Assembly: GCA_963749445.1 (NCBI GenBank)
Contig: CAVVMJ010000005.1
Location: 98,915-162,914 of the forward strand
Direction of reading: 5' to 3'
Source of the DNA: an uncultured bacterium
GTDB lineage: Bacteria; Patescibacteriota; Doudnabacteria; UBA920
Length of the DNA stretch: 64,000 bases
Shown in pieces: positions 14,387-64,000 of this stretch. The notes beneath the pieces are model-generated. The model was not told where the DNA came from. It did not search any database and saw only the letters and a program-made list of their open reading frames with translations. The translations under genes and the position numbers were made by a program. How positions within the stretch are numbered: the stretch's first letter is position 1; each line of letters starts with the position of its first letter.

Positions 14387-14902
14387 TGTAGCGTGCCGAT
14401 TTATCGGCGTCTAAGTTATTTGTAGAATTGATCAAATTTAAGCAATAATTCTTGGGGATTATTTTGAATGTATTCCCGAATTTTAGTCAGGGCTTTTTCG
14501 TTTCTGACAACGTGTTCATAATAATTCGATTGCCAAAGATTTTGCCCGAAGGTATGGGAAACCTTGGCTTTAAATCTTCGGACGATCTCTCCCAGGTGCA
14601 ATTTGCAGTTGTGAAGGATGAAAATTATATGGATATGATTAGGCATAATCACAAAATAATCCAGTTCAATACCCGGGGTCTTAGATTGGAGGTCTTGCAA
14701 TTCGTTTTCCACTAGAATTTCATTATTTTGAAATAAGTTTTGCCTTAATTTGGCCACAGCGGTCACGAAGTAATATCCATCGGACGTATAATCATATTGT
14801 TTTAGACGAATGTTTTTTCTTCCGTCCATAGGATTGTCCTTCGACGCCGATAAATCGGCACGCTACATAGACCGGTGGGTGTAGCGTGCCCATTTATGGG
14901 CG
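14387..14902 (-). mobile_element. REP-RAYT unit inserted between purC and purB
   Basis: TGTAGCGTGCCGATTTATCGGCGTC at 14387-14411 and its exact reverse complement at 14843-14867 flank the Y1 transposase gene. A variant TGTAGCGTGCCCATTTATGGGCG lies at 14880-14902. Confidence 0.65.
14416..14829 (-). CDS. REP-associated tyrosine transposase (RAYT, IS200-like Y1 HUH transposase)
   Basis: HUH motif MPNHIHIIF. Catalytic-Tyr region NYYEHVVRNE. 137 aa. Confidence 0.75.
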   Translation of the reverse strand: MDGRKNIRLKQYDYTSDGYYFVTAVAKLRQNLFQNNEILVENELQDLQSKTPGIELDYFVIMPNHIHIIFILHNCKLHLGEIVRRFKAKVSHTFGQNLWQSNYYEHVVRNEKALTKIREYIQNNPQELLLKFDQFYK

Positions 14903-18244: not shown

Positions 18245-19672
18245 TCATCTGCCGCTCGTAGATGCTACTGGCGACATCTTCTCCTTGCCAGGAGAAGAGG
18301 GAAACACGGATAAGGATTGCTGGCCGATGTCTGTTCTATAATGCATACCGTCAAAGTTTATAAGATTTACAGCGGCGTAAGCTTTGTTGAGGGCGGATTG
18401 TAAATCATCAGCAATTGCCGTGACTCCGAGGACTCGGCCGCCGTTTGTTACCAACCTCTCCCGGCCTTCGGCCGCCCTCCCCTCATCCCTCGACTCCGCT
18501 CGGGGTGACCTTGAGCTTGCCGAAAGGTCATGAGGGGAGGGGCGGGGAGAGGTTGCAGTACCGGCGTGGAAAATTACAATATCACCAAGCTTTTCCGCTT
18601 GTTCTATGCCGGTTATTGGCAAACCTTTTTCGTATTTGCCCGGGTAGCCGCCGCTGGCTAAGACAATACAGCAGGCAAAGCCCGGGTGCCATTCAATTTT
18701 AATTTTATCTAAAGTTCCTTCCACACTAGCCATCAGGACATCAAAAAGATCGGTTTTCATCAGTCTCATCAAACTTTGCATTTCCGGGTCACCGAAACGG
18801 CAGTTAAATTCAATAACCTTGGGGCCGTCATCCGTTAAAATTAATCCGGGATATAACAGTCCCATAAATGGCGAACTTTCTTTTTTTAGGGCTTTGAGGA
18901 TGGGGGTGACTATGGTATTGGCAACGGTATTTAAAAGATTTTGATTTACCCACGGCACTGGAGCAATAGTGCCCATGCCGCCGGTGTTCGGGCCCTTTCC
19001 GTCGTCAAAAATAGGCTTATGATCTTGCGCCGAAGGCAAGAGTTGGAAGTTTTTGCCGTCGCAAAAAGCGTGGATGGAAAATTCCGGTCCTTGTAAAAAT
19101 TCTTCTATGACTACGTCGTTGCCTGCGTCGCCGAATACTTTTTCCACCATCGCGGCCTTTAGCGCGGCCTTAGCTTCGGTCATTGTCTTGCATACTGTTA
19201 CGCCTTTTCCCAAAGCAAGGCCCGAAGCTTTAATAACTATGGGGGCTTTTATGGTTTCCAGATATTTAAGCGCGTGGTCGTAATTGCTAAAGACTTGGAA
19301 GCGCGCGGTCGGGATATTGGCTTTTTGCATCAAGTCTTTGGCAAAGGCTTTGGAAGCTTCTATGCGCGCCGCCGCCTGGGTCGGCCCCCAAATCAGCAGT
19401 TTGCGTTTTTTAAATTTATTGACAATCCCCAAAGCCAGCGGGTCATCTTGTCCCACTACCGTCAAATCAATTTTCTTTTTTTCCGCAAAATCAGCTAAGG
19501 CATCAATATCTGTGGCTTTGATGTCGATGTTCTCGGCGACTTGCGCCGTGCCGCCGTTGCCCGGGGCCACATAAATTTTCCCGACTTTGGGTGACTGTTT
19601 TAGTTTCCACGCCAAAGCGTGCTCCCGCCCGCCGCCGCCGATGATTAAGATTTTAGATAAGTTTTGCCTCAT
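18245..19672 (-). CDS. purD: phosphoribosylamine-glycine ligase carrying an in-frame 34-aa palindromic-element insertion
   Basis: KILIIGGGGREHALAWKL... 475 aa versus about 425 typical. The extra segment SPRPSPHDLSASSRSPRAESRDEGRAAEGRERL sits just before the conserved VTNGGRVLGV. Confidence 0.85.
   Translation of the reverse strand: MRQNLSKILIIGGGGREHALAWKLKQSPKVGKIYVAPGNGGTAQVAENIDIKATDIDALADFAEKKKIDLTVVGQDDPLALGIVNKFKKRKLLIWGPTQAAARIEASKAFAKDLMQKANIPTARFQVFSNYDHALKYLETIKAPIVIKASGLALGKGVTVCKTMTEAKAALKAAMVEKVFGDAGNDVVIEEFLQGPEFSIHAFCDGKNFQLLPSAQDHKPIFDDGKGPNTGGMGTIAPVPWVNQNLLNTVANTIVTPILKALKKESSPFMGLLYPGLILTDDGPKVIEFNCRFGDPEMQSLMRLMKTDLFDVLMASVEGTLDKIKIEWHPGFACCIVLASGGYPGKYEKGLPITGIEQAEKLGDIVIFHAGTATSPRPSPHDLSASSRSPRAESRDEGRAAEGRERLVTNGGRVLGVTAIADDLQSALNKAYAAVNLINFDGMHYRTDIGQQSLSVFPSSPGKEKMSPVASTSGR
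18452..18555. repeat. GC-rich palindromic insertion element inside purD (family B core CCCTCGACTCCGCTCGGGG)
   Basis: caacctctccc...gggagaggttg terminal inverted repeats, an internal tgacc...ggtca hairpin and the core ccctcgactccgctcgggg. About 104 bp. Confidence 0.7.
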
Positions 19673-22558: not shown

Positions 22559-23341
22559 TTATTTAAAATAGTTAACGGCGTTTTTAAAAATTTGCAAACC
22601 GGCGGCGTATTTGGGCAGGGGTTTACCGGCCCTTATCAGTTTCTCTTTTAAAAGTGGCCAGTTGGGGAGTTGGGTAAAGAACATGGCGCGCTCGGGATGG
22701 GGCATAGTGCCCAGGATTTTTCCGTTGGCTGATGTTAACATCGCAATGTCCAGGGTTGAGCCGTTGGGATTAGGCTTCAAGCTCTGATAGCCGCACATTT
22801 CTCCTTTATAGTATACCGCACCAATCATTTTTTGGCTTTTGATGAGTTTTAGCGTTTTATCATCTGCCACAAATTTGCCTTCGCCGTGGGCGATGGGCAG
22901 GGAGAGATGGCAGATTCCATTTAGCCATGGGCTAGTGTCAAGGGTCACCCTTGACACTACATCCACCCAGCGGTCGGTGTAGCGGTTGTTGTCGTTAAAG
23001 GTGAGCACGCCGGGCAACAGGCCAGCTTGGGTAAGGATTTGGAAACCGTTGCAAATTCCTATCACGAGTTTATCTTTGGCGGTAAATTCCAGTAATTGTT
23101 TTTTTAAATGGTTGTTTAATTTGTTGGCGTAAGCTTTGCCGCTGCCCAAATCATCGCCGTAAGCAAATCCTCCGGGAATGGCAAGAATTTGGTAACGCGA
23201 TAATTTTTTTGGCGAATCAATTAAGTCATTAATATGGACAATATCAGCCTCACCTCCCGCAATGTTAAAAGCTGCCGCGGTTTCTTCCTCGCAGTTTAAG
23301 CCGTAGCCGGATAAAATTATTGCTTTGGGAGAAGTTTTCAT
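22559..23341 (-). CDS. purQ: FGAM synthase glutamine amidotransferase subunit
   Basis: KAIILSGYGLNCEEETAAAF and ICNGFQIL...HGEG. Confidence 0.85.
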   Translation of the reverse strand: MKTSPKAIILSGYGLNCEEETAAAFNIAGGEADIVHINDLIDSPKKLSRYQILAIPGGFAYGDDLGSGKAYANKLNNHLKKQLLEFTAKDKLVIGICNGFQILTQAGLLPGVLTFNDNNRYTDRWVDVVSRVTLDTSPWLNGICHLSLPIAHGEGKFVADDKTLKLIKSQKMIGAVYYKGEMCGYQSLKPNPNGSTLDIAMLTSANGKILGTMPHPERAMFFTQLPNWPLLKEKLIRAGKPLPKYAAGLQIFKNAVNYFK

Positions 23342-23891
23342 GAAACTGTATTTACTAACTACTAATCCTTACTAATATACGAATGTGAATTTCTTGGAAT
23401 TAGTATATTAGTAATTAATTAGTAGTTAGTAAAGTTAGTAATCTTTAAACGTTGACCGGTACGCCCTTAATGCGTCCGCGATTTTTAAATTTACAATGAG
23501 TTTTTGATGTTTATCGGTGATTGTTAAAGTAGATTTGGTGGTGGTTTTGCCGATTTTTGCAAAAATATTTTTTCCGGCGGAGCCGGATCCCGCTCCGCGG
23601 GACATCAGGTTTTCAAAAATAGCGATGTTCTGCGACGCCACGCTGACCAAAATTCGCCCTTGGCTTTCGCTAAATAAAGCCTGATAATTTTCCTGCCAGG
23701 AGCCGGGTACATCGGCCAAGCTGATTTCTGCGCCAAGGCCGCCGCCCATAAGTTTTTTAGTTAGCGCTACAATCAGGCCGCCGCCGTTAACGCTTATGGC
23801 CGAGGCGATTAGGTTTTGTCGGTTGGCGTTGAATAAAGTTTTATATAATAAATAGTTTTTGGCGGCGTTGACTTTTGGAACTCCAACCACC

Positions 23892-23945
23892 CCGTCCGCC
23901 TTCGGCGTCCACCCCTCCTTAAAAAGGAGGGGAGACTGCATTCTG
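23892..23945. repeat. palindromic insertion element (family A: ACCACCCCGTCC...CCCCTCCTTAAAAAGGAGGGG) inside purL C-terminal region
   Basis: Encodes MQSPLLFKEGWTPKADGVV in frame. Confidence 0.65.
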
Positions 23946-24900
23946 AAGTATTCGCTCCCGCCCATTTCATCATCAGTCGTTCCCAATATATAGAGCGAAT
24001 CGCCCGGCAGTTTGGCGTCCAGCGAAACGGTTTTGGCCGCGTCCGGCACCACGCCGATGGCGGAAATCAAAAGCGTGGGCGGAATGGAAATTTTTAGCGG
24101 CTTTCCATCATCGGAAAATCCTTTAAAGTCGTTATACATACTGTCTTTGCCGGAAATAAACGGCGTGCCGTACGCGGTGGCGACGTCGTAGCAGGCGCGC
24201 GCCGCTTGTTTTAACTGCCATAAACGGCCGGGGTCTTCCGGACTGCACCAGCAAAAATTATCCAATAAAGCCAAATAATCAATGTCAGCTCCGGCGGCCA
24301 CGGCCGCGCGAACGGCCGAATCAATGGCAGAAGCGGCCATATTGTAGGGGTTAAGCTCGCTGTAAGACGGATGCAAGCCGTAAGAAAGCACCACGCCTTT
24401 TGGGGAAGTTAAAAGCGGGCGGGTAACCGTGGCCTGGGCGCTAATTTTGCCGCGGCCTTGCAGCGGTTTTAATACAGAGCCGCCTTGGACTTCGTGGTCG
24501 TATTGGGTGTTGATAAAATTGGTGGAGGCTAGGTTGGGGCGGGATAATAATTTAAAAATTAAAGATTGAAGATTGAAGGATTTGGGGATTGCCGATGATC
24601 TTGCATTTTGTGATTTGGGTTTTTGTGTTTTTTGATTTTTAATCGGTCGGCCGTTGTGTAAAAATTCCAAATCCATATCCAGCACAGTCTGTTTTTTGAA
24701 TTTAATCAGGCATCTGCCGCTATCGGTAAATTTACCGATGACCGTAGTCTCTACCCCTCTTTTTTTCATCAGCTGTTGTAATTTTGCCAAACGCTTTGGC
24801 GGCACGGCCAAAACCATTCGCTCCTGGGATTCGGAAATCCAAATTTGCCAGGGCGCGAGGCCGGGATATTTTAAGCGGAACTTTATCCAGAAAGACTTCG

Positions 24901-24951
24901 CAGCCGCCCCTCGACTTCGCTCGGGACGACCCTGTCGGGTCGTTTGCAGCT
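24901..24951. repeat. family B element (CCCCTCGACTTCGCTCGGG + CGACCCTGTCGGGTCG hairpin) inside purL middle segment
   Basis: Encodes NDPTGSSRAKSRGGC in frame. Confidence 0.65.
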
Positions 24952-26280
24952 TGGGCCATTTCGCCGACCGCTGATGATAATCCTCCGGCGCCACAGTCAG
25001 TTATTGAAGAATATAAATCTAAGTTCCGCGCTTCTTTAGCCAGTGCGTCGCTGAATTTTTTTTGCGTTATCGGGTCGCCAATCTGCACGGCCGTGGCCGG
25101 GCTGTTTTTGTCCAAGTCCTTCAGAAGCAAAAGTCGCGCCGTGGATGCCGTCGGCCCCGACTCTGCCGCCCACCATCACAATCAAATCCCCGGCTTTGGT
25201 TTGTTTAATGTGGCCGGATTTGCCGTTAATCAGCCGGGGAATTAATCCCACGGTGCCGGCAAACACCAAAGGTTTGCCGCGGAAGCGCGGGTCAAAATAT
25301 ACAAATCCGGAATTGGTGGGAATGCCGCTTTGGTTGCCGCCTGAGTTAATGCCGGAAATTACGCCGTCCATTATGCGGCGGGAGGAGAGCATCTTGTTGT
25401 CCGATGTAGCGGCATGCCTTGGCATGCCGTCATCATTAGGCACGCCACGGCGTGCCTCTACAGGGTTAGATCGATATAATTCTGTTTTATCGTTCGGGTC
25501 GGCAAAGCAAAAACCGTAAGTATTAATAATCGGTTTTGCCCCCAAACCAAACCCTAAACAGTCGCGGTTGACTCCCACAATTCCGGTAATGGCGCCGCCG
25601 AACGGGTCAAGCGCCGAAGGCGTGTTATGGGTCTCCACTTTGTGGGTGATTAAATAATCGCGGTCAAAAATTATTCCGCCAGCGTTGTCGGTAAATACGG
25701 AGACGCAGAAGTCGTTACGTTTTTTTTGTTGCCGGATGGTTTCCGTGGCCCCCTTAATGTAGGTTTTATAGATGCCTTTTTCCAGCTCGTCCATCGGGTC
25801 GGCAAAAATGGTGTGTTTGCAGTGTTCCGTCCAGGTTTGCGCCAAAGTTTCCAGTTCCACGTCCGTGGGCTTCCGGTTTAGTTTGTTAAAATATTCGCGG
25901 ATGACTTTTAATTCTTCCAGCCCCAACGCCAGCGGCCCGCGCCTTTTCGCAGAAACTGCGAGTGCAGCCGAAGCAGTCCCGTTATTTTTTGATGGGATTG
26001 CTTCGTCGGATGCACTCCTCGCAATTTCCGGTTTTTTTTGGCGTTCCTCTATCCCCAATTTCCCCAGCTTTATCAGCTCCTCATCCGCAATATTCAAATC
26101 CACCCTGCTGACTTTGGCCGAGGCGGCAAGCTTGACTTTGGGCGCGACCATATCCATGCCGCCGTCTTTTTTAAAATCATCAAAACTTTTTACTGCCGCG
26201 CGTTGGATGAGCGGGTTGTAAAGGCTATTGGCGATTTTTTGGATATCCGCGGCTTGCCCGCCGAAGCCTTGGCGTAGGCG

Positions 26281-26337
26281 GGGGCTTCCCCTCCTTTTTA
26301 AGGAGGGGTGTCCTGCGGAGCGGGACGGGGTGGTTGG
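26281..26337. repeat. family A element in opposite orientation inside purL N-terminal region
   Basis: Encodes TPTTPSRSAGHPSLKRRGSP in frame. ccccTCCTTTTTAAGGAgggg palindrome. Confidence 0.65.
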
Positions 26338-26757
26338 AGTATAAAAAGAAATAAAAAAGACCTGAGACGAATAAACATCCTGCCCCGGCTTGAATTTTAT
26401 TTTCGCCCCGTCTTGCAAAGTTTCTTTGGCCGTGCGGCCAATGTTGTCCGTGACCCCGGGCAGAAAACCGATTTCCACGGCAAAATTAAAATTCCGCGGC
26501 GCCTTTAAAGCGGTGTCCGCGGATTCTGCAAGAGGATTGGCCAACAGCGTTTTGGCTTTTTGGATTTGTTTTTGGTTTAGGCGCGCGTCAATCGTATAGC
26601 AGTCCGCCAGATACACCGCCCCCAGTTTGTTTTTTAGCCCCAGCGCCTCAAACTGCTTTTTTTTGACTTTGGCCCGGGCGTCGGGGATGGTGGACTTTAC
26701 GTAAATGCGATGCATTGAGAGATTTGAGATTTATGATTTTAGATTTCAGATTGGAAT

Positions 26758-26861
26758 AAGTTGATGGGCATCTTCGAGTTTGTGGCATAGTCGGCGGTTA
26801 AAGACGCCTCCATCAATAAAAACAACTAAACTGATAAAGTCGCTAGAAGATGCCCATCAAT
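26758..26861. mobile_element. MITE-like element, copy 1 (about 104 bp)
   Basis: Terminal inverted repeats AAGTTGATGGGCATCTTCGAG at 26758-26778 and CTAGAAGATGCCCATCAAT at 26843-26861. Sits directly upstream of the purL start. Confidence 0.5.
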
Positions 26862-27821
26862 CATCCGCAGTGGGCGAAAAACAAAAAAATCTTCCAAAGA
26901 CCGGGAAGAAAATGTGAGCAGGGAATTGGTTGTAAGTTGTGGCGGCTAGTGTGGTAATAAGGTAATAGTGGTAAGTACTTATGCCTTATAACCTAATCTC
27001 AAACAGGCTGCCATGACTTATACCTTTTAACTCTCTATTTGCGGTGTCTTCCACCTGCAGTTTAGCAATAAAAAACCGGGTTGTCAAAAAAAATAGATCC
27101 CCGGAGAAGGATCTTTCTGACTGAAGGTTTTTTGGGGGTTTTGAGGTCCATTTTGAGGTCCATGTCGTCTGGTATTAGGCGGGAAAAGATCCTCTCCGGG
27201 GTTGCTCGGCGGCTGTGTCACCATTGGGGGTGTCAGCCGCCTTGATGTATGGCGTTCATCCGGTCGGTCGTCAGCCGGCCGGGAAAAATTTAAAGGCCTC
27301 CTTTTGTTTGGCTCGCTCCTGGCAGCGAGCGTCGCGCGGAATACTGGCCGCGCCCTAGTTAGCCGGATCCAGGCTGTCCGGCCCTATCATCACCTCGGTC
27401 TTCTTACCTCCCGGGTTTGCCGGCGATTGCCGGAATGCGGTCGGCCTCTATGGATAACGGCCGAGCCGCGTTGCATCTTCCTGGCCACGCCGGGCCGGAA
27501 GGAGTTAGACAAATACTTTACTGATTGCATTAATCAAAATTATAAAGATGAGAAATGATTTAGTCAATTTTTATCGAATTTTGTAACAAATCGTCTGGGT
27601 GTGTTATAGTTAAAAAATCAGGTTTGCCTGAAAATTTACGGGAGGACAATTAAAGGATGATAAGGCTTTTACTTGAGCGGGTTGCTGACCCATTGCTTAA
27701 CGTTGGCGTTTGGGTTATCGACAACCCGTTTTTGGCGTATTTGGCGAGATTATTTTCACGCCGTTCTTAGCGCCATCATCAGAAGCACCAAAGAACGCCG
27801 GGTTGCACAGTAATCCGGCGT

Positions 27822-27858
27822 TTCAAAATTAATAGGACAAATAGGACAAATAGGACAG
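27822..27858. repeat. 9-bp tandem array AATAGGACA x3 (+GATAAGGCA)
   Basis: aataggacaaataggacaaataggacagataaggca. Confidence 0.55.
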
Positions 27859-27998
27859 ATAAGGCAAAATAAAAACGCTTTTTAGGCGGGAATAAAATTT
27901 AGAAAAAGGGGACCGGAAGGGAGTCCCGCGAGAAGCTGAGTCTTAACTGTACTCGAAACTTCTGCAAAAGAGTCCCTTCCGATCGGCGCTGCCGAGCT

Positions 27999-28472
27999 TC
28001 AACCTGTGGCGTTGCCGGTGCGTGTCCCCGCAAGGATGTCGCCCAAGTAGACGACCTCCGGCGGGGGCGCTGCGGTTGCAGCGCTATTGTTCGCCGTCAA
28101 CGCGCCAGTCCAGCTAATGGCCGCGGCCGCACCTCCGGCGGTTACAACGTTGAGAGCGGCCTGCGTGTAGGTAATTGCGGCGGCCGTTGCAGACGAGGTA
28201 GCATTGGCCGTCAAGTTGCGATTGTCCACGCTATTGACCAGGTCGCCGGTCAAGGAAGCGTTGAGAGTCACCGCCGCGACCAGTTGGGCCGGAGGCGATG
28301 GAGTTTCCATCACGTTGAGCACTATGCCAGAGTCGAATCCCGCTTGTTCGGTGATGAGCGGGAACAACTGTTGCGTAGTCAGCGAAGCTGCGGGAGGAGA
28401 AACGTTTGCCATGGCGAACCCCGCGAACAGGGTCAGTACGGCTAACGCCATGATCCATGTACGGAAATTCAT
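27999..28472 (-). CDS. secreted Ala/Thr-rich hypothetical protein (start at MNFRTWIMALAVLTLFAGFAMA; RBS aggaga)
   Basis: Track ORF 27999..28577. The internal Met carries a signal peptide and an RBS. Confidence 0.45.
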   Translation of the reverse strand: MNFRTWIMALAVLTLFAGFAMANVSPPAASLTTQQLFPLITEQAGFDSGIVLNVMETPSPPAQLVAAVTLNASLTGDLVNSVDNRNLTANATSSATAAAITYTQAALNVVTAGGAAAAISWTGALTANNSAATAAPPPEVVYLGDILAGTRTGNATG

Positions 28473-29284: not shown

Positions 29285-29926
29285 ATGAGGATTTTTGTGG
29301 GGATTCCGTTGTCGGAGGAGTTGAGGGGGCGGGTTTTGGAGTGGGAGGGACAACATCGATTCGACCTCTCTGCCCTTCGGCTGCACTCGGGGCATCTCCC
29401 CTCGCCAGGGGAGAAGGGGAACACCGTACGATGGGTTGAGCCCAAGAATTTGCATGTGACGCTGGTGCCGCCCCTCGACTTCGCTCGGGGCCTGCGGCCG
29501 TCTGATATCGAGGGGATCATCAAAAAGTTGGAAACAGTTAAGCATCAGCCTTTTGAAATAAGGTTTGATAAGATATCGTTCGGGCCGAATGTTAGGGAGC
29601 CGAGGATGGTTTGGGCAAGCGGAAACGCGGGAGAGGAAATTAAGAAATTGAAGAAATTGATTGAAATTGCGTTAAGCGGCATTGTTGATAATTCGCGCGG
29701 CCGCGCGTTTTATCAACACGTTACGCTGGCGAGGATAAAAAACCCTCATCCGCCGCTCGATGCATCGCGGCACCTTCTCCCAGGGGGAGAAGGCGGGAAC
29801 ATCCAAGCGGTTGACTGGCGGATGAAAGTAGAAAAGTTTGTGCTTTATGAGTCGCATTTGTTGCCGCAGGGGGCGGATTACGAGGTTTTGGCCGAGTTTT
29901 TGCTACAGCCTTTTACTAAATGCTAA
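29285..29926 (+). CDS. thpR: 2H-phosphoesterase family RNA 2',3'-cyclic phosphodiesterase / 2'-5' RNA ligase (LigT/ThpR) with three in-frame element insertions
   Basis: MRIFVGIPL... Two H-x-T-x motifs, LHVTL and QHVTL. 213 aa versus about 175-190 typical. Confidence 0.7.
   Translation: MRIFVGIPLSEELRGRVLEWEGQHRFDLSALRLHSGHLPSPGEKGNTVRWVEPKNLHVTLVPPLDFARGLRPSDIEGIIKKLETVKHQPFEIRFDKISFGPNVREPRMVWASGNAGEEIKKLKKLIEIALSGIVDNSRGRAFYQHVTLARIKNPHPPLDASRHLLPGGEGGNIQAVDWRMKVEKFVLYESHLLPQGADYEVLAEFLLQPFTKC
29393..29420. repeat. family C palindromic element (TCTCCCCTCGCCAGGGGAGAAGGGG) in thpR
   Basis: Encodes HLPSPGEKGN in frame. Confidence 0.55.
29471..29490. repeat. family B core CCCCTCGACTTCGCTCGGGG in thpR
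   Basis: Encodes PPLDFARG in frame. Confidence 0.6.
29774..29793. repeat. family C element (CTTCTCCCAGGGGGAGAAGG) in thpR
   Basis: Encodes LLPGGEGG in frame. Confidence 0.55.
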
Positions 29927-35004: not shown

Positions 35005-36891
35005 ATGAAAGAATTGAAAAAAAGGATTGGCTTGTCTAACCAAAATATTGAAGGCGGGGGTTTACCCAGTACCACTTTTGGTCAGACCAAAAGTGGTACT
35101 GGGTTTAGTTTGATTGAGGTCGCGGTGACGCTGGCGGTGTTCGCAATGCTCGCCACCGCGGTTTTGGGCGTAGTGGCCGCGCTTAACCAGGCGGTCAAAA
35201 CCGCCCGCCAGTCAACCCTGGTGTCGTCTTTAGCCGACAATTATATGGAAATTGTCCACAATATGCCGTACAGCCAAATCGGCACGGTGCACGGCAATCC
35301 GGTCGGCACCTTGCCTGACTGCAACGGCACGCCGCCGACTTGTCCAGGCGCTCTTTTGGCCGCGATAGGCGGGCAGAATTATAAAATTTATTACGAAGTT
35401 ACTTACATTGACGATCCGGCCGACGGCGTGGCGCCGGCGGATCCGGCGCCGGCGGATTACAAGCAGGTCAAACTGAGCGTGCAAAACGCCCAGACCAACG
35501 GGGTGACCAATTTTGTGACCACGGTGGTGCCCAAGGGCCTGGAGAATACCAACAACGCCGGCGCCTTGTCCATTGGTGTCATCAATTATTTAGGACAGTC
35601 CGTGCCCGGCGCCACCATAACCATCCAGTCGCCGCCGACTAATCCGGTTATGAACCTGTCCCGCCTGACCGACGCAAACGGCAAGTGGACAGAAGTCGGC
35701 TTGCCGGCCGGGGCGAATAATTACCGCGTGACCGCGACCAAATCCGGCTATTCCACGGACCAGACCTATCCGATAACCGGCCAAAATCCCAATCCGACCA
35801 ATCCGGACGCCACGGTACTTAACGGCCACGTTACGTCGCTGACTTTTGGCATTGATGCGTTGGCCAATTTAACCGTCAACACCGTGGACCAATATTGCGG
35901 GCCCAAAAGCGGGGTCGGCATTAACATTTCCGGCGCCAAAATTATCGGCACTAATCCCAGTGTCTATAAATTTAACCAGAATTTTACTTCCTCCGCCGGC
36001 GCCGTGGTTTTGAACAATCTTGAATGGGACACTTACACGCCGGTGCTGCTAACCGGCCAGGGTTACGTGATTGCCGGAACTTCGCCGGTGCAAAAAATTG
36101 ACGTTTTGCCCGGCACCGCGCAGACTTTTACCATGGTGCTGAATTCCGTGACTACGGGCAATACCCTGCTAGTCATAGTCAAAGACGCGGCCACCCAGAC
36201 GGCCCAGGAAGGCGCGGCCGTGACTTTGACAAACGGCGTCCAGACTTACGGGCCGTACTATACCGGCGGCAGCGTTTGGATCCAGACCGACTGGAGCGGC
36301 GGGCCGGGGCAGGCTTTGTTTGACGGCGGAGGCAGCGCTAAGTATTGGACCGATGACGGCAACATCAACAACAATAATCCCACGGGACAAATCCAGCTGC
36401 GCAAAACCGGCAGCAGCTACGCGCCCTCGGGTTTTGTGGAATCATCCACTTATGATACCGGCACGGCCTCCAGCCAATACACCACTTTGACCTGGCAGCC
36501 CCTGGCCCAGAGCCCGAACACGACTTTGCGGTTCCAGCTGGCGGCCAATAATGACAACGCCACCTGGAATTACGTGGGTCCGGACGGCGCCACCAGTACT
36601 TATTACACGGTTTCGGGCACCAACATCAGCTCGGCGTTAAACAATAACCGTTATGTCCGCTATAAAACTTATTTATCCACCACGAACAGCAGTTCCACGC
36701 CGGTGCTGACTTCGCTGAATATTAATTACGTTTCCGGTTGCCGCACGCCCGGCCAGGTGCTGTTTAACGACAGTATGAGCTCAGGCGGCAATTACAAACT
36801 GACCGTGACTATGCCCGGCTACAGCACCTCCACCGTAAGCAATATGACGGTGAGCGGCGACCAGATCATTCAAGTGTTGGTGTCACCATGA
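35005..36891 (+). CDS. large type IV pilin-like protein (class III signal peptide G|FSLIEV) with long beta-rich extracellular region
   Basis: GFSLIEVAVTLAVFAMLA, 628 aa. Confidence 0.6.
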   Translation: MKELKKRIGLSNQNIEGGGLPSTTFGQTKSGTGFSLIEVAVTLAVFAMLATAVLGVVAALNQAVKTARQSTLVSSLADNYMEIVHNMPYSQIGTVHGNPVGTLPDCNGTPPTCPGALLAAIGGQNYKIYYEVTYIDDPADGVAPADPAPADYKQVKLSVQNAQTNGVTNFVTTVVPKGLENTNNAGALSIGVINYLGQSVPGATITIQSPPTNPVMNLSRLTDANGKWTEVGLPAGANNYRVTATKSGYSTDQTYPITGQNPNPTNPDATVLNGHVTSLTFGIDALANLTVNTVDQYCGPKSGVGINISGAKIIGTNPSVYKFNQNFTSSAGAVVLNNLEWDTYTPVLLTGQGYVIAGTSPVQKIDVLPGTAQTFTMVLNSVTTGNTLLVIVKDAATQTAQEGAAVTLTNGVQTYGPYYTGGSVWIQTDWSGGPGQALFDGGGSAKYWTDDGNINNNNPTGQIQLRKTGSSYAPSGFVESSTYDTGTASSQYTTLTWQPLAQSPNTTLRFQLAANNDNATWNYVGPDGATSTYYTVSGTNISSALNNNRYVRYKTYLSTTNSSSTPVLTSLNINYVSGCRTPGQVLFNDSMSSGGNYKLTVTMPGYSTSTVSNMTVSGDQIIQVLVSP

Positions 36892-44268: not shown

Positions 44269-46480
44269 ATGAAACCAAAACCGCCCGGCAGACGCCATAC
44301 GCCTCACTTACATCATCAAACTAAAATTAACCAAACCATTATGGATAAGGTCAAAATCAAAAGGGTAAAAAGGGATAAAAAGAAAGCCACAACAAAAGAA
44401 AAGATTTTGGCCGGTTTGGGCGTGGGCGGAACCCTGATGGGCGGCATTGCGGGAATGCAGGCTAAACCCAGCGCGCAGACGAAACTTGTCAGCATCACCG
44501 GCACCGAGCAGTCCAGCGGCACTTCCAAAATTAAATCCGCAATAAAAAAGCTTTTTGGCGCGACCATTGGAGCGCAGACGGCCAAGGCGGAAGAAAATAC
44601 CACCACAACCCGCACAGTTACAGATCCGGATACTGGTCAAATTACCACTTATTACGACACCACTATTAATGGTATGCCTGTAACGGTTGACCAAAACGGC
44701 ACTACCTGGATAAATCAGGGCAACGGAGCCGAGCAGGTTGACCCGCAGGATTACGGCATAGATCCCAATGCCATACAAACGCAGGCTACCACGTCGTCAG
44801 ATACTTCCGGAACCTCCGGCACAAGCGGCACATCTGGCACATCAGGGACTTCTGGTGACGATGGTTCAAGCGGCACTTCCGGTACATTTCCGGGACTTCT
44901 GGCACATCAGGTGACGGTGGCGGTACAGCGGTGACATGGCGACAGTGGTGACAGCACCACTAATACCGGCCCCACCCTAACCGGCGCGCCAACCTTAAAC
45001 TCCAGCGGCACGGGCATTGATGTGTCCGGTTTGGCATCTAGTGGCGGCAGCAGCGGCATCAGCATTGACGACAGCCAGGTTAACTACAATGTTCCCGGCA
45101 CCTACACCGTAACCATCAACGCTTACGACAGTTCCGGCAACCTGACTTCCCAGACATACCAGGTCACAGTTCCGGCTACATCTGGAACCGCGGTACATCT
45201 GGGACTTCTGGTGAACTCTGGCACTTCCGGTAGTAGCGACGCCACTAATACTGGCCCCACCCTAACCGGCGCACCAACCCTAAACTCTAGTGGCACGGGT
45301 ATTGATGTCTCCGGTTTGGCATCTAGTGGCGGCGGCAGCGGCATCAGCATTGACGACAGCCAGGTTAACTACAATGTTCCCGGCACCTATACCGTAACCA
45401 TCAACGCTTATGACAGTTCCGGCAACCTGACTTCCCAGTCATACCAAGTCACAGTTCCGGCTACCTCAGGTACATCAGGTACCATCTGGAACCAGTCGGC
45501 ACTTCTGGTACATCCGGTACTTCTGGTGCCACAACCGGCCCCACCTTAACCGGTTTGCCAACCCTAAATTCCACTGGCACGGGCATTAACGTGTCCGGCT
45601 TGACGTCCTCGGGTGGCAGCGACAATATCAGCATTGACGACAGCCAGGTTAACTACAATGCTCCCGGCACCTATACCGTAACCATCAACGCTTACGACAG
45701 TTCCGGCAACCTGACTTCCCAGACTTATCAGATAACAATTCCGGCTACCTCAGGTACCTCTGGCACATCAGGGACATCCGGAACCAGTGGCACAAGTGGC
45801 ACTTCCGGCACTCTGGAACCAGCGGAACCTCTGTCGATTTAGGAGCCCCTGTTTCCGGCTCTATACCATCCCGACTCCAACAATTCTTACAGCTGGACAG
45901 CCTCGACTGCCACCATTGGCGGCCAGCAATACACTAACCTAAACCTTTCCGCCCTGTCGGACGGCCGGATTATTGCCTACATTAACCGGCTGGCACGGAC
46001 GTGACTTCAGGTTTACACCTTGCGGCATGACCGGGACTTTATATTCCGCCTATAAGTGCTAGCTCCGGAGCCTGGTACCTCCGGCACTATCAGGGACTTC
46101 GGGTACATCGGGCACATCATGTACATTCGGTACTACTGGAACTTCAGGTCATCTGTCATCTCAGGCACTCGTCGCCGTCCGCCACAACCGGCAACGTACC
46201 ACCCGTGGTTACATTGAACAACGGCGTGTATACGGCTTCGGTGACTATCAACGGGCAAACCTATACGGCTACAGGATCCACTTTGGGCGATTTGAACAGT
46301 AATATGCAAAAGTACAATAATCTTACCGGCAATAACCAGCAAGTTTTTGCGGCTTTGGCTCAGGCTTCCGACGCCTACGCGTTGAAGCAATATAACGCGA
46401 CGCAAGCGGGTAAAACCCCGGGCAACGGCGCGCCAATTGATATATCCACCGCTTCCGTGTACGGCTCCGATGAGTTATGA
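44269..46480 (+). pseudogene. large surface protein gene with three tandem ~95-aa Ig-like repeats separated by (SGT)n linkers; reading frame broken at the linker microsatellites
   Basis: Track ORFs 44269..44934, 45022..45549, 45555..45842 and 46205..46480 each encode the same unit TGPTLTGAPTLNSSGTGIDVSGLASSGGSSGISIDDSQVNYNVPGTYTVTINAYDSSGNLTSQTYQVTVPATSGTSGT, in different frames. Confidence 0.5.
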
Positions 46481-51175: not shown

Positions 51176-51304
51176 TCGGTTGGTGGATAAATCAAAATCG
51201 CGGGACTGGTGCATATATCTGTTGGTGGATAAATCAAAATCGCGGGACTGGTGCATATATCTGTTGGTGGATAAATCAAAATCGCCTGTAGCTACAGGCG
51301 ATTT
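51176..51304. repeat. 42-bp direct repeats x2.6 (iteron-like), ending in a hairpin
   Basis: Unit CTGTTGGTGGATAAATCAAAATCGCGGGACTGGTGCATATAT. Third copy is truncated into aaaatcgcctgtagctacaggcgatttt. Confidence 0.7.
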
Positions 51305-51469
51305 TGTGTATTTTTTCGTTACTAATTTCGTTTTTGAAATTAGTTTTATTTTTATCGCAATCGGTAAATTATGAATGCCTTATAAACACTAGCGTTCATC
51401 GATAATTTTAACGTTTAGCGAACGAATTTACCAACCAAAATGGTTAACAGTCCCGATCTGTTGCGTTTG

Positions 51470-51575
51470 CGCGTACGTACGCGTATATTAAACAAATGAT
51501 ATTTTAGCGAAAAGCTGTTTCCGGATAAATTGTAAATTTGTTGCATTTATTCGTACGTACGAATAAATGCAACAA
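51470..51575. promoter_or_regulatory. palindromes CGCGTACGTACGCG (51470-51483) and the 38-bp perfect palindrome TTGTTGCATTTATTCGTAC|GTACGAATAAATGCAACAA (51538-51575)
   Basis: Read directly. A related 20-bp palindrome ATACGCGTACGTACGCGTAT lies at 52155-52174 on the other side of gene 51593..52126. Confidence 0.5.
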
Positions 51576-51592
51576 AGCCCGCGGTAAATAAT

Positions 51593-52126: not shown

Positions 52127-52371
52127 ATTTTTTGATTTATCCTATGTGTTTAATATACGCGTACGTACGCGTATTGTCAACAGATTATGTTTGGTGGAAA
52201 GCGCGGTTTTTGATTTTTGATGTGGCAACAGTTGTTTAGTTTATGCGTACGTGCGTGTAAACGCAACAAGGGAAAGCGATTGATAAAACATTCCTGATTT
52301 TGACGGCCGTCAAAATCAGGAATGTAATAAAAATCGAGAATGAAATCGGGAAATCTTGCCTGTCGGCGGAA

Positions 52372-54903: not shown

Positions 54904-55945
54904 ATTTGTGGAATTAATTATTTAGACAAAAGCATCGGCTATCGTCTTCGTCACCGGCTTCGCTATGGTTTCGGCGACAAGCCGGCGGATTGTTCGCAAT
55001 AATTTTATTAGCGACGTAGAGCGAGAGAAACTAAATAGCTTGCTATTTAGTTTCCGAGCCGAGGAGCTAATATAGGTTCAATACCTGGCAGCTCTGCTGC
55101 GTATTGATAGCATCTCCTTGGAAATACCTCGGAGCTCTGTTCCGAGGAACCTTTATTACTGATAACTTGGCTACCCGTCTTCGCTTCCGACTTCGCCAAG
55201 GCTACGTCGGACAAGAAAGCTACGGCGGGTTGTTTTTCAGCAAAGCTGAAAAACAAAAAACCGCTCAACAAGCAGGCGGTAAATAATTATAATATAGATT
55301 GTGTCTATATTAAATTCCTGCTCGGGAGTTTGTTGTTTATTTAGTAACCGGACTGACCCCGACATTTGTCGGAGATTACCGTTGCGGCACAGTGCCGGAT
55401 TTTCACCGGGCTTCCCTAAAATAAACATTTGAATTTTTAACGTAATTGGATTCTATACCGGGAGATAAAAGTTGTCAATCCCGCAAAGTCCCCGGATGGG
55501 CGCCATCCGGTGTCGTCATCCGTTGAAAGCCTTGACAGCTTGGTAATGGGCTTAAAACGGTAAAAACTTAAATAAATAACTGTGGATATTTAAGGCTTGG
55601 CCCAAACGTCTAAAATCAGGGCCTTTGACAAAATCTCTTGCAATGTGTTTTGGGTAAAATCGGTCAATTTTTGGGGTTTTTTGTTTCTCTTTCAAATATG
55701 AGGGATTTTACATATGTGTAACATTTAAGTTAAACCGACTATTAAAATAGTTTCATCAAGCCCGAAAAATGCTTGTTGCACGTTTTATGATTCATTTAAT
55801 TGAACGTTGTAAAAATGAATTAAAAATCTTGTGAACAATTTGCTCCAAAATTCAAATATTTTTCCCCTAACTAAAATTTACAAGCAAATTGTTCCATACC
55901 AAATCTTGTCAGATAAATTTTTTTGTTTAACCTGATAAAAAATTG

Positions 55946-55979
55946 AAAAGAATTTTCCTTTTAAAAGGAAAATTCTTTT
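55946..55979. promoter_or_regulatory. 34-bp perfect palindrome AAAAGAATTTTCCTTTT|AAAAGGAAAATTCTTTT in long upstream region of giant gene
   Basis: Read directly. Confidence 0.4.
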
Positions 55980-56294: not shown

Positions 56295-59200
56295 GTGGAC
56301 GAGAATTTGAAAGAAAATTTTGATTCGTTCTTAAGCCTCGCGGAAGCGAGCAAGCTAACAGGGTACCACCAGGATTACCTTGGTTTTTTGTGCCGCACCG
56401 GCAAGCTCCAGGGATTTAAAATTGGCAGGAACTGGACGACGACCAAACAAGCCTTGGATGAGTTCATTAAAAACTATAAAAACGGGGTTAGCGAAATCGT
56501 TGATGAAACAGGCAGGAAGATCCCCGTTAAGGTAGAACGCCTAGCCCCTCAAGTTGTCATCGCGGATTTGCCCGCGGGGCAACCTCCAATTGCGGCGGGT
56601 CTTGTTTTTTCGCAGGGCGCAACTCCACAGCCGCAGGAAGTTTTGCCCGCTGCGCTTAATTCCAGTTTAGAGCTTAGGCACCTCCGCAGAGACGTCATTG
56701 ATGAAATTGACAAAAAGGTGCAGAACTTGTCCGCTAGCGTGGAAAAGATTGAAACCCAAACTCAGGAACAGGCGAAACAGTTAGAGGCAAATAAACAACA
56801 AATACTGGCAGTTGTCCCGGTGGCGGAAACGGCGCCGCAAGTACCGTCAACCGCGGCAGCGATAAACAATTTTGCCGAAGAAGACGAGTACGTCAAAAAA
56901 GAACGGCAGCGATTCAGCAACAAGTTTGCTTCCAATTTTGATTTCGGAACCGCGGATATTCACCCGACTACGCCAAGGCTTCGTCGGGCAAGCGCGGAAC
57001 CAGAACGCGGAACATACGCGGATCAATCCAAGTTCGCGCTGGGGAAGGAAAAAGTCAAACAACTTTACGGAAGCTTTACAAAAAAGAGCCGCATAGATTT
57101 TAACCGGGTCGGCGCGTACGCCTTGGTTGCAATAATTTTGGCGCTGTTTATGGGATCGGTGTTCTGGAGAAATTTGTTTAATAATCTGTCCGGCAATCAG
57201 CGGCCGCAGGAAATGAAAATTGTTTACCAGAACAATAATAGCGGCAAGCAGCCAGCGGTAAGCAATCAGCAGCCCGGCGCGGGTCAGGGCGGAACCACCA
57301 TCGTTAACAAAACCGTCAACCAGCTGCTCGGCTTTTCCGACGCGGACTTGTACAGCCTGATAGATAACCGTTTAAACCAATATTTGGCCGAAGGAAGATT
57401 CAAAGGACCCAAAGGGGACCAGGGGCTGCCGGGGCTGCCGGGCGGAGCCACCTACGTAGCGTCAAACCCCGCGACCGGCTTTTCCGGCGGCAGCATTGGC
57501 GGGACAACCTATCTTTCTTCCCAGGATTTTGCCACAAATAACATTACGGTTAACATCAGCCTTACGGACAACGGCACGGCGGTTTTTAACGGGTACGCGA
57601 CTTTTAACGGGAACACAAACTTAAGCGGCACTACGACCATTGCGAATTTGAACGTTGCCAATATTAATCCGAATTTTACCCAGGGCAGCGTGGTGTTCCA
57701 GGGATTAAACGGGCTGGCGCAGGACAACGCGAATTTTTATTGGGACAGCGTAAATCATCGCCTTGGCATAGGCACCACCACCCCGGAATTCGCTTTGGAT
57801 GTTAATGGCGTCGTGAACGCGCAGGCCTTGTACGTTAACGGCACGCCGTATATCGGCAGCCAGTGGATTTCCACCAGCACGGGAATTTATTTTGCTTCCG
57901 GCAATGTGGGTATTGGCACGACTTCGGCTTCAAGCACGATGCTAACTGTGGCGGGCGACACATCGGTATTCGGCAATTTGGCGGTGGCCGGGACATCGTC
58001 GCTGGCTTCGGCAATTGTTGGCAACCTCACAGTTACGGGCACATCAACACTTGATAGGACGTATACGATAGAATTGGCCGTATCGGACTTATCAACGCTG
58101 GCTACAACTTCAGTAACCAGTTTGGCGGTATCGGGAATCTCGTCACTCGCGACCACCACCATCAGCAACCTTACTTTAACCCAGCCGCTGTCTTTGTCGT
58201 CAGGGGGCTTAGGGTTTGATTCGTCGGCTATTCAAAAGGGCGGGCTGTTGGCCGGAACGGGCAACGGAAGTTTTGGCATCCAGCCGGTCGGCAGCGACGG
58301 CTTGTGCTTGCTGGCTTCTTCCACCGCGCCGTCGGGAATGGCCTGGACTGATTGCGCCGTGGCGGCCAATGCCATTACTTCGTTAAACGGTCTGACCAAT
58401 CCGGTGCAGACTTTTGCCACGGGCAGCGACATCAACATCGGTTTGAATATAACCTCCAGCGGATCCACTCACACTTTTACGCCGACTTTTACCGGCACCT
58501 TGGCCGCCAATCGCTTAAACAGCAACGTGGTGCAGGGGATTACGAATGACACAAACATTACCGGCTCAATTTTAAACCAGGTTTTGACTTTGGGCTGGAA
58601 CGGGCAACTTTCCGCGGCGCGCGGCGGCACTGGCACCAACACTTTGGCTTCCTTGACCGTCGGCAGCAACTTAAACATCAGCGGAGGACAGAATGTCCTT
58701 ATCGGCACTTCCACCCAGATTACGTTATCAAACAATCCGTCCTTTACTTCTATCACCGCCACTGCTTCTTCTTCCTTGGGCAATGCCACGGCCACGGCTT
58801 TTTCCGCCACGACCTTTAACGGCAACACCCTGACTGCCGGCTCCGGTACTCTGACTTTGAATAACAACACTTTGTCTTTGCAGGGCGGCAACACTACACT
58901 GGTTGGCATCAATTCCATCACAAGTTCAACGATAGCCACCTCCACCGTTGGCACTTCCACCATCTCCGGCTTTTTGGCCTTAAACTCCACCACCACCAAT
59001 TCCAACATCAGCGGTTCAACCGTCAACAACGTCACCATCCAGGGCAACAGCAATACCTTAACCCTGCTGGGTACTTCTTCCATTGACCAATCCGTCACCA
59101 CCACCTCCACTCCGACCTTTGCCGGCCTCACCGTCAACGGCCCCGCCTCGGCACAATCTTTGATGGTGACGGGCAACTTAACCGCCACGGGTTCGACTAC

Positions 59201-62200: not shown

Positions 62201-64000
62201 TAATGGCCACTTCCACCCCGGTCCTGGCAGTTACCGGCTCCGGAAACATCGCCTCTTCAGGAGGGACTTCACCTAACCTTACTTTTACCGGAACACTTCC
62301 GATACTTAACGGCGGAACAGGACAGACAACTCTGGCGGCGGCCAACATCGTCACGGCTAACGCCTCAGCCGGCCAGGTCCCTTACTTTACCGCCCCGACC
62401 ACCCAGTCAGGGAGTGCCAACTTCCTTTGGAACAATACTTCCAACCTGTTAACCATCAACGGCACCATCAACGCCAGCACCTCCAACTTCACCAACTTAA
62501 ACGCCTCCTCCACGGTCTTGACCAACGCCACGACCACGGGCCAATCGGTTCTTTTGGGACAAACCAACGGCAAGCTGCTGGCTTTAGACCAAAACGGAAT
62601 CATCATCTCCACTTCCACCGCCTACCAGACCGCCTTGAGCAATCCCGATACCGGCACGGGAGCCTCGCCGCAAATCGCTTATTGGTCAAGCGCGACCGGA
62701 CTGACGGGCGCGTCCGGCTTCCTATGGGACAACTCAAATACCAGAATGGTGGTCAACGGCACGATCAACGCCACCACCTCCAACTTCACCAACTTAAACG
62801 CTTCCTCCACCGTCTTAACCAACTCTACCACCACAAACCAGTCCGTCTTCTCCGCCATTACCGGCCCCACCTTCCTGGCCTTAGACTCCAACCATATCCT
62901 AATGGCCACTTCCACCCCGGTCCTGGCAGTTACCGGCTCCGGAAACATCGCCTCTTCAGGAGGGACTTCACCTAACCTTACTTTTACCGGAACACTTCCG
63001 ATACTTAACGGCGGAACAGGACAGACAACTTTGGCGGCGGCCAACATCGTCACGGCCAACGCCTCAGCCGGCCAGGTCCCTTACTTTACCGCCCCGACCA
63101 CCCAGTCAGGGAGTGCCAACTTCCTTTGGAACAATACTTCCAACCTGTTAACCATCAACGGCACCATCAACGCCAGCACCTCCAACTTTACCAACCTGAA
63201 CGCCTCCTCCACGGTTTTGACCAACGCCACGACCACGGGCCAATCGGTTCTTTTGGGACAAACCAACGGCAAGCTGCTGGCTTTAGACCAAAACGGAATC
63301 ATCATTTCCACTTCTACCGCCTACATCACCACCGCCAACGTCTCCGGCGCCTCGCCCCAGGTGGCCGTGTTTGCCGGAGCCAATACGGTTAACGGATACA
63401 GCGGCTTCCTTTGGGACAACTCAAATACCAGAATGGTGGTCAACGGCACGATCAACGCCACCACCTCCAACTTTACCAACTTAAACGCTTCCTCCACCGT
63501 CTTAACCAACTCTACCACCACAAACCAGTCCGTCTTCTCCGCCATTACCGGCCCCACCTTCCTGGCCTTAGACTCCAACCATATCCTAATGGCCACTTCC
63601 ACCCCGGTCCTGGCAGTTACCGGCTCCGGTTCCCTCACTTCCACCGGCGGCACCTCCCCGAATATCGCCTTGGTCACCCTGGCTAACAACGCCGTCCTCT
63701 TTGGCCAAGGCAGCGCCACCATCGGCACTTCCACCAACTTTTCCTGGCTTAACGGCTCTAATCTCTTTAGCGTCAACGGCACCATCAACGCCACCTCCTC
63801 GCTGTTCACCAACGCCACTTCCAGCAACCTGGCCGCCACCTCCTTAACCTCCGCCCTGCCGGTCAGGAGCACCACCGCCGGCTACCTCTACAACGGCGCG
63901 ATTAACCTTAGCTCCGGCTCCTCTGACATTACCGGCACTCTGGCCATCGGCAGCGGCGGCACCGGAGCTTCCACTCTGGCCGGAGCCAACATCGTCACGG
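56295..64000 (+). CDS. giant membrane-anchored protein: N-terminal HTH_17/excisionase-like domain, coiled coil, TM helix, short collagen-like GXY stretch, then >2000 aa of Thr/Ser/Asn/Gly-rich fibre-like tandem repeats; runs off window; single-base frame change at about 61386
   Basis: LSLAEASKLTGYHQDYLGFLCRTGKLQGFKIGRNWTTTKQALDEFI, TM helix VGAYALVAIILALFMGSVFW, collagen-like GPKGDQGLPGLPGG. Nested repeats of about 690 bp recur at 59880, 61350, 62340 and 63030. The copy at 61381-61391 reads GGTCCCCTTAC where the others read GGTCCCTTAC. Confidence 0.6.

Follow-up and report, generated by a model that had tools for sequence, protein, structure and literature searches.

Repetitive extragenic palindromic sequences (REPs) tagged with GTAG or CGTC are known from inside genes of Opitutus terrae, Rickettsia conorii, Thauera, Xanthomonas and others, where they lengthen the protein in frame by about 20-30 residues (Di Nocera et al. 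2013, PMC3733652). In that work at most two REP sites were present per open reading frame (ORF), and different REPs were found at about one site in Xanthomonas recB. A related kind of system couples REP doublets (REPINs) with a small Y1/HUH transposase, the REP-associated tyrosine transposase (RAYT), and is well described (Bertels and Rainey 2011, PMC3116915). Classical REPINs are overwhelmingly extragenic. The present analysis concerns purL, the gene of a PurSL-type formylglycinamidine ribonucleotide (FGAM) synthase, on a 64-kb stretch of contig CAVVMJ010000005.1 (hereafter the window) from a Doudnabacteria-like genome of the Candidate Phyla Radiation (CPR). It is probable that this gene has been colonised, through many separate entries, by short dispersed stem-loop repeats of the REP/REPIN kind.

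A further precedent is provided by the Rickettsia palindromic elements (RPEs) RPE-1 to RPE-8 (Ogata et al. 2000, 2002; Claverie and Ogata 2003, as cited in PMC3733652). Within the library searched, literature on CPR or Patescibacteria with REPs or palindromic coding insertions yielded nothing relevant. RPE-1 measures about 100-150 bp, and the GC clusters and byp elements of yeast mitochondria are GC-rich hairpins that invade protein-coding genes, the byp elements being bypassed by the ribosome and not needing to keep frame.

purL occupies positions 23435-26715 on the minus strand, and its conceptual product reaches 1092 aa after frame repair, compared with approximately 985-991 aa in typical relatives; the roughly 100 surplus residues are housed in at least seven short GC-rich elements, and the inserts make up about 9% of conceptual PurL. 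Pfam recognises the FGAR-AT_linker, AIRS and AIRS_C domains, the PDB matches are PurL structures (3VIU and 1VK3/2HS0), and the closest database proteins belong to Candidatus Doudnabacteria and other Patescibacteria. Orthologs share 52-69% identity by BLASTP, or 57-74% over aligned columns, and a scan of GTDB representative genomes returned relatives only at 67% identity or less. The source genome is thus absent from these representatives, and purQ of the window has no entry in the contig collection either. The inserts were defined on an alignment of 25 PurL orthologs and a codon-level view of it, in which seven segments correspond to gaps in most sequences. They represent at least five families, named A to E, together with a twin hairpin F, and family A is present twice, in opposite orientations:

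26287-26340, minus strand (sense to the gene): family A copy 2, ACTCCAACCACCCC followed by the 17-nt hairpin 1, an A and CCCCTCCTTAAAAAGGAGGGG; encodes TPTTPSRSAGHPSLKRRG.

26251-26286, minus strand: family D, CCCGCC-TACGCCAAGGCTTC-GGCGGG, abutting family A copy 2; encodes SPRLRQGFGGQA.

25954-26025, minus strand: family E, inverted doublet ATTGCGAGGAGTGCATCCGACGAAGCAAT ... ACTGCTTCGGCTGCACTCGCAGT; encodes IARSASDEAIPSKNNGTASAALAV (IARSASDEAI...ASAALAV).

25406-25461, no strand: family C, REPIN-like, two 9-bp hairpins with GTAG...CTAC ends; encodes VEARRGVPNDDGMPRHAAT.

24906-24941, minus strand: family B, 36-nt insert composed of GACCCGACAGGGTC and GTCCCGAGCGAAGTCGAGGGGC; encodes DPTGSSRAKSRG.

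23880-23935, plus strand (antisense to the gene): family A copy 1, read as SPLLFKEGWTPKADGVVG.

23573-23602, no strand: twin hairpin F, CCCGCGGAGCGGG ATCCGGCTCCGCCGGA; encodes RGAGSGSAG.

An earlier note on this DNA had reported three palindromic insertions from two families (A and B) in purL. All three are real inserts, missing from most orthologs and not part of conserved PurL sequence; the count was too low, since families D, E, C and F have to be added. The two oppositely oriented copies of family A, which the note had placed at 23892-23945 and 26281-26337, were confirmed with limits differing by 6-12 nt. Their arms (23872-23933 and 26287-26348) extend over 62 nt and are 84% complementary, the copies are 87% identical over 54 nt by blastn and differ at 13% of positions, and the 21-nt core CCCCTCCTTAAAAAGGAGGGG occurs exactly twice in the window, once per strand, where approximately 0.01 occurrences would be expected by chance. 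Family B stands as an insertion (36 nt relative to most orthologs), its hairpin being only marginal in the folding analysis reported below. The idea that the segments belong to dispersed repeat families was also upheld: the B module recurs within the window (29467-29489), as does family D (56963-56993), and the related locus L050 (in purD) and 12 metagenome contigs contain family A.

Among the added elements, family D is a net insert of 30 nt relative to the ortholog P0007; family E is missing from most orthologs and has related copies in purL of L033 and purQ of L048; the twin hairpin F is an insert relative to most orthologs, and P0004 and P0010 share a longer form of it. Each of the inserts has a length that is a multiple of three and is free of stop codons in its local frame, family B lying within the middle of the three frames over which the gene is split, and the insert-junction peptides of conceptual PurL include ...FYTPTTPSR... 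and ...NPVEARRGVPNDDGMPR.... An AT-rich low-complexity stretch of purL at approximately 24540-24640 was considered as a further element and rejected, being variable in all orthologs and devoid of a repeat partner. Rfam gave no match at gathering score in the whole window, and within purL only chance miRNA-like hairpin matches (E = 0.3-0.9); no tRNA or tmRNA was found in the window.

When the elements were folded as single-stranded DNA and compared with shuffled sequence, five of the seven folded far better than the shuffles (family C, z = -5.5; family E, -5.4; A copy 2, -4.4; F, -3.7; A copy 1, -3.3). The fold of family B is marginal (z = -1.8, with 10 of 200 shuffles folding as well) and that of family D is no better than shuffles (z = +0.8), while three control segments of purL gave z-scores of +0.7, -1.2 and -0.25. 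In a census blind to the families purL had seven GC-rich hairpins, where dinucleotide shuffles gave 1.3 +/- 1.1; the gene holds 7 of the 29 GC-rich hairpins of the window in 5% of its sequence (P = 5e-4).

Copies outside purL were sought in the 64-kb window, in 192 kb of related DNA and, for family A, in a metagenome scan. Two second copies are present in the window:

29467-29489, plus strand: constant module of family B, exact over 23 nt, in a LigT-like ORF and preceded by a different small hairpin, GGCC-GCA-GGCC.

56963-56993, plus strand: family D, 93.5% identical over 31 nt, inside a 1760-aa ORF.

In the second copy of family D the stem CCCGCC/GGCGGG is changed to CCCGAC/GTCGGG, a compensatory substitution. 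Families B, D and E are found in other genes of related loci. The LigT-like ORF (29285-29926) contains four hairpins or palindromes, at 29393-29416, 29467-29489 (the family B module), 29683-29718 and 29771-29795, and from its sequence looks like another heavily decorated small gene.

The metagenome scan searched for the constant parts of family A and left the 17 nt between them unconstrained. It yielded 12 contigs (L051-L062), with soil metagenomes among their sources, and all 17 copies of the family share one architecture: (A)CTCCAACCACCCC, a hairpin of 7 bp with a 3-nt loop, A, and CCCCTCCTT-RAA-AAGGAGGGG. Hairpin 1 covaries at five of its seven pairs, with 21 double-sided changes, and none of 500 shuffles reached the observed score. 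The copies are read in five of the six frames, sense frame 2 being closed because the TTAAAAA or TTGAAAA turn gives a stop. On low-GC, CPR-like contigs family A lies within genes, e.g. a 2-hydroxyacid dehydrogenase and a Dus-like ORF; on high-GC contigs it is extragenic, beside Pfam-supported genes, 12-39 nt past the stop codon in four cases and 33 nt upstream of a gene in L058. Two further features were observed among these copies. In high-GC soil bacteria of the L051-L062 set, two-hairpin modules resembling family A occur clustered and as inverted pairs, and an apparently recurrent CTCC or CTGC was noticed a few bases 3' of many copies, mirroring the 5' CTCC of the element.

The pur operon also contains a candidate enzyme for elements of this kind. 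Its genes are ordered purL, purQ, a small ORF, purF, purN, purD, a HAD hydrolase, purE, purM, purC, a transposase-like gene and purB, and the transposase-like gene lies 8.6 kb from purL, flanked by the hairpins of a separate family, R:

14416-14829, minus strand: RAYT-like Y1 (HUH) transposase gene, 137 aa, between purC and purB; Pfam Y1_Tnp.

14839-14902, no strand: family R inverted pair of GTAG hairpins upstream of the RAYT-like gene, GTAGCGTGCCGATTTATCGGCG / GTAGCGTGCCCATTTATGGGCG; fold z = -7.3.

14387-14415, no strand: family R single hairpin downstream of the RAYT-like gene, inverted relative to the upstream pair.

In the PDB the protein is closest to E. coli TnpA-REP (4ER8, E = 4e-8): its HIH falls on the HUH motif (HMH) of that structure, and the Tyr of REYIQNNP on Y115. 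Its best NCBIfam model is REP_Tyr_transpos (73.2 bits, E = 2e-20, against a cutoff of 80 bits), the IS200 model scoring 25 bits. Orthologs of the gene with the same hairpins are present in the pur operons of L049 and L050, there between purN and purD; RAYTs are regarded as single-copy and immobile, and to judge from these arrangements this one has changed place within the operon. The 192 kb of related DNA contain 40 copies of family R, roughly one in two lying within an ORF of at least 240 aa. It occurs in frame in purL of P0001 (as a REPIN) and twice in that of P0020, as well as in purD, purM and purQ of relatives. Since such in-frame copies are found in the purL of relatives and none is found in the purL of the window, the RAYT link is direct for the former, and for the latter we infer it, with RAYTs as the putative mobilisers of family C.

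Across the 25 orthologs a small set of PurL loops is occupied repeatedly, by one element in several orthologs or by unrelated ones, and the distribution departs from the gene tree. Site 1 houses family A in the window (copy 2), in P0002 (89% nucleotide identity) and in P0007 (80%). In P0001 its occupant is a REPIN of family R, P0005 and P0006 have hairpins of the CCCTCTCCC type there, and P0004, P0008 and P0013 other elements, whereas P0003 has none. The family C site bears the same REPIN in the distant P0013 and other GTAG hairpins in P0003, P0005, P0009 and P0017, and the site of family A copy 1 is also occupied in P0001 and P0003. P0003 and P0006 are 82% identical in DNA, yet five of their insert sites differ. 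The turnover of elements across the clade is thus brisk. At the family B site, which offers the sole clean comparison of filled (P0001/P0006) and empty (P0003/P0010) alleles, the insertion falls between two Gly codons and shows no target-site duplication, a feature that had been proposed as a check on the insertions; elsewhere filled and empty alleles have unlike flanks, which leaves the limits of the elements approximate.

The three elements of families A and B are also found at the same sites in some orthologs of only 65-74% protein identity, and that of family C likewise in a distant ortholog, which means that they are either old or have been reinserted or exchanged at hot spots. The DNA identity of elements at shared sites is 79-89%, compared with 47-53% at the third codon positions of the same gene pairs, and at the shared family C site the stems are identical and the loops differ. 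These results do not sustain the description of the three first segments as independent hits, nor a recent origin for them, because each of them is found at the same site in some of these distant orthologs. Active proliferation, which the earlier note had deduced from them, is likewise not borne out for the source genome, given the 13% difference between the two family A copies and the sites that A, B and C share with distant orthologs.

A palindrome in the neighbouring purQ (22933-22959) was considered as an eighth insertion and discarded, as close relatives encode the same peptide there. It is a perfect palindrome of 12 bp with a GTAG head, encoding VVSRVTLDTS, and at the same spot L048 has a family E doublet and L049 a family R REPIN. 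In purD, a GC-rich hairpin CATCTTCTCCTTGCCAGGAGAAGAGG is located at 18275-18300, in the C-terminal domain; the GARS_C profile has 92 positions but its match there covers 120 residues, as if an insert were present. The lengths of purD, purM and purQ vary widely among relatives.

In an AlphaFold model of PurL all inserts are predicted as coil between helices or strands, which would place them in loops, and the predicted local distance difference test (pLDDT) is below 50 at residues 127-151, 227-255, 423-438, 595-599 and 928-942. Where family B and family A copy 1 stand, the solved Thermus PurL (3VIU) is simply gapped. The mapping onto a structure that had been proposed for these segments was made on a mediocre model (mean pLDDT 68). 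Orthologs bearing inserts are intact ORFs of 947-1096 aa, and in such intact genes translation of the inserts would add loops 9-30 residues long, in many cases with an abundance of Pro, Gly, Ser and Arg. Every purL insert keeps the frame, as byp elements need not do, and avoids stops, which argues for translation; inteins, introns and translational bypass were ruled out on the same ground, as none of these mechanisms would require it.

The gene itself is not one open frame. The ORF list and a three-frame translation split the conserved PurL sequence over frame A (from 26715 to approximately 25116), frame B (on to approximately 24875) and frame C (on to 23435), and comparison with eight orthologous coding sequences set the two changes of frame, each within a leucine codon:

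approximately 25112-25116, minus strand: frameshift 1, one surplus base; gene strand GGA CTTG GAC, relatives GGA CTG/TTG GAC.

approximately 24873-24875, minus strand: frameshift 2, one surplus pyrimidine; gene strand CCG CTTA AAA TAT, relatives CCG YTA AAA TAT.

The two lie within 250 nt of each other, and a blastx comparison of the window with the ORFs of related loci revealed no other multi-frame gene among approximately 20 kb of syntenic genes. At both shifts C-T-T-R stands in place of the Y-T-R of relatives, the pattern expected from a merged C/T polymorphism, and the repaired protein retains all of the more than 300 residues invariant across the 25 orthologs. The version used in the alignment and the AlphaFold model has SEDL at repair 1, where the corrected reading is SEGL, a difference of one residue. 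Going by these comparisons, this copy of purL either was inactivated very recently or contains local errors in the consensus. The frameshifts are a matter separate from the element insertions. They qualify two statements of the earlier note: that the segments are translated in frame, which holds for each element in its local frame and not for purL as a single frame given the two one-base surpluses, and that the gene is essential, which in this copy is clouded by the frameshifts.

The reading that we consider probable, colonisation by REP-like elements, would operate as follows. HUH tyrosine transposases of the RAYT type, one of which is encoded in the same operon, would move or copy the elements as single-stranded DNA hairpins; selection would purge those insertions that break the frame, add a stop or strike structured parts of the protein; the survivors would cluster in a few permissive loops, and the occupied loops would be re-used, exchanged or emptied, leaving the mosaic pattern seen among relatives. 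Several results weigh against this reading. Family D folds at the level of shuffles and family B only marginally better. No purL element in the window matches the hairpins flanking the RAYT-like gene: what families C and R have in common is confined to the GTAG(C/A)G head. A GTAG head is absent from families A, B, D, E and F, and doublets with GTAG heads are seen only in C (in purL) and R. Pfam scans of the other long ORFs that are plausible genes, leaving out overlapping alternative-frame ORFs, found no second transposase, and the copies counted for the source genome come from 64 kb of it. In the PurL model several core regions also have low pLDDT, which is therefore not specific to the inserts, and the putative translation of the inserts is read from sequence in a frameshifted copy of the gene. 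Finally, the DNA identity of shared elements far exceeds that of synonymous sites, which suggests hairpin constraint or recent re-insertion or exchange and is unlike a purely neutral passenger.

This last point leads to the strongest of the rivals, in which the hairpins are exapted, not just tolerated as passengers, and the host retains them because they serve it, as DNA or RNA, within coding sequence: they might stabilise the mRNA, make transcription or translation pause between domains, or bind a protein. The high DNA identity of same-site elements relative to third codon positions, the identical stems and differing loops of family C, the covariation in hairpin 1 of family A and the repeated occupation of the same loops in the clade would all agree with it. 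However, unrelated families and empty sites alternate at one loop among close relatives, which is hard to square with a site-specific function, stem conservation and covariation are equally expected if a transposase recognises the hairpin, and in high-GC bacteria family A is extragenic. We regard host function as unlikely, and it is kept alive at this low level because the stems are conserved. A second rival, with the segments as ordinary lineage-specific loop expansions produced by local slippage or template switching at palindromes and not as copies of mobile families, would account for the lack of a visible target-site duplication and for the flanks that differ between filled and empty alleles at several sites, which look like replacement rather than clean insertion. 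It is at odds with the near-identical copies in unrelated genes and genomes, with their presence in both orientations and several reading frames, and with the family R copies that flank a transposase gene, and only a very small probability is assigned to it.

Two other rivals start from the state of this gene copy. If purL were dead, the elements could have accumulated without selection against insertions, and the two frameshifts within 250 nt, in the sole multi-frame gene of approximately 20 kb of syntenic genes, point in that direction. Yet all seven elements are in frame and stop-free, intact orthologs have A1, A2, B, C and F at the sites seen here and relatives of D and E elsewhere in the gene, and none of the more than 300 invariant residues is lost from the conceptual protein; moreover, the C-T-T-R in place of the Y-T-R leucine codon is more suggestive of an error of consensus calling where the site is polymorphic, or of two very recent single-base duplications. 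A dead gene is accordingly rated very unlikely, a shade above the loop expansions. The least credible rival by some distance is an assembly artefact in which repeats caused chimeric joins within purL: the source is evidently a metagenome-type assembly, and the frameshifts show that the local consensus may be imperfect, but the same elements stand at the same sites, within intact ORFs, in independent assemblies of different studies (L001, L002, L048-L050, L063, L064).

Set beside the systems described at the outset, the colonised purL resembles the intragenic REPs of PMC3733652 in having short palindromes, single or as inverted dimers, in frame within real genes, in taking more than one insertion in a gene, as some of the published genes do with two, in the different elements at about one site, and in the GTAG head and dimer form of family C. 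It is unlike them in its CPR lineage, in the at least seven inserts of at least five families in one gene, in the absence of a GTAG head from most families, and in a host gene that is metabolic and does not belong to replication or repair. With REPIN-RAYT systems it shares a gene for a small Y1/HUH transposase between GTAG hairpins of inverted orientation, REPs as inverted doublets that fold into long hairpins, and the conservation of transposase and REPs across related genomes; unlike those systems, it shows about half of the family R copies within long ORFs, a RAYT gene at differing places of the pur operon among relatives, and an NCBIfam score just below the trusted cutoff. Such systems are also the subject of Nunvar 2010. 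The likeness to RPEs is in behaviour only: as far as the account relayed in PMC3733652 goes, both are palindromic repeats in frame in housekeeping genes, compatible with translation and present as several families in one reduced genome, and RPE inserts have been proposed to lie at the protein surface as the PurL inserts are predicted to lie in loops, while the elements found here are shorter (30-72 bp), belong to another phylum and lifestyle, and are accompanied by a candidate transposase. Miniature inverted-repeat transposable elements such as Correia and Nezha are similarly small, non-autonomous repeats landing in or near genes; the purL elements differ from them in being far shorter, in the absence of a target-site duplication at one clean site and in having no terminal-inverted-repeat organisation recognised by eye.

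Other parts of the window drew attention in their own right. The approximately 1.3 kb upstream of purL (26716-27999) are without a convincing ORF and without an Rfam or tRNA match. A 192-nt stretch in this region (conserved part 26877-27066, minus strand) is 78% identical to the region upstream of purL in L048 and partly similar to those of L064 and L050; ahead of it stands what reads as a promoter, TTGACA-17-TAAACT (approximately 27057-27085). The pur operon may thus have a long conserved leader here, or a regulatory RNA not yet described. At the other end of the gene, the gap between the purL stop and the purQ start is filled by an 84-nt AT-rich imperfect palindrome with TTAGTA/TACTAA units (23351-23433). 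Further away, a perfect 41-nt palindrome with a 19-bp stem (35064-35104) falls in the opening 35 codons of a pilin-like ORF, shortly ahead of the N-terminal methylation motif; a tandem repeat of approximately 285 nt is present in the gene of an Ig-like surface protein (44957-45775); and large direct repeats, with units of approximately 300-780 nt and 85-99% identity, extend in and after the 1760-aa ORF (59832-64000). Perfect intergenic palindromes of 28-40 nt at 51277-51306, 51537-51576, 52288-52325, 55027-55054 and 55946-55979, some of them around the gene of a PaaX-like regulator, bear no relation to the GC-rich families; they could serve as operators or terminators.

In-frame hairpin repeats are already known, and the case of purL is notable for their density, the number of families, the turnover at hot spots and a family common to CPR-like and high-GC genomes. 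A wider proposition can be put forward only tentatively, and taken as a whole we hold it to be doubtful: that in Doudnabacteria, and perhaps widely in the CPR, REP-like hairpins are a major continuing source of loop insertions in proteins. Under it, a few permissive loops would serve as heritable landing pads that are refilled, exchanged between lineages or emptied; the hairpins would stay constrained at the nucleotide level while being translated; and the near-identical constant parts of family A in low-GC CPR-like genomes (intragenic) and high-GC soil bacteria (extragenic) would reflect spread across phyla or a very old recognition module.

If the segments of purL derive from REP-like repeats, they provide a concrete mechanism for the origin of extra segments in CPR proteins; inserts of this kind inflate protein lengths and can mislead annotation. 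The purL system constitutes a natural experiment on which loops of a large enzyme tolerate 10-30 extra residues, and the RAYT of the pur operon, together with the in-frame copies of its REP family in relatives, forms a candidate enzyme-substrate pair. REPINs have been thought to be confined to intergenic space, and their persistence in coding sequence with the hairpins kept becomes a testable question.

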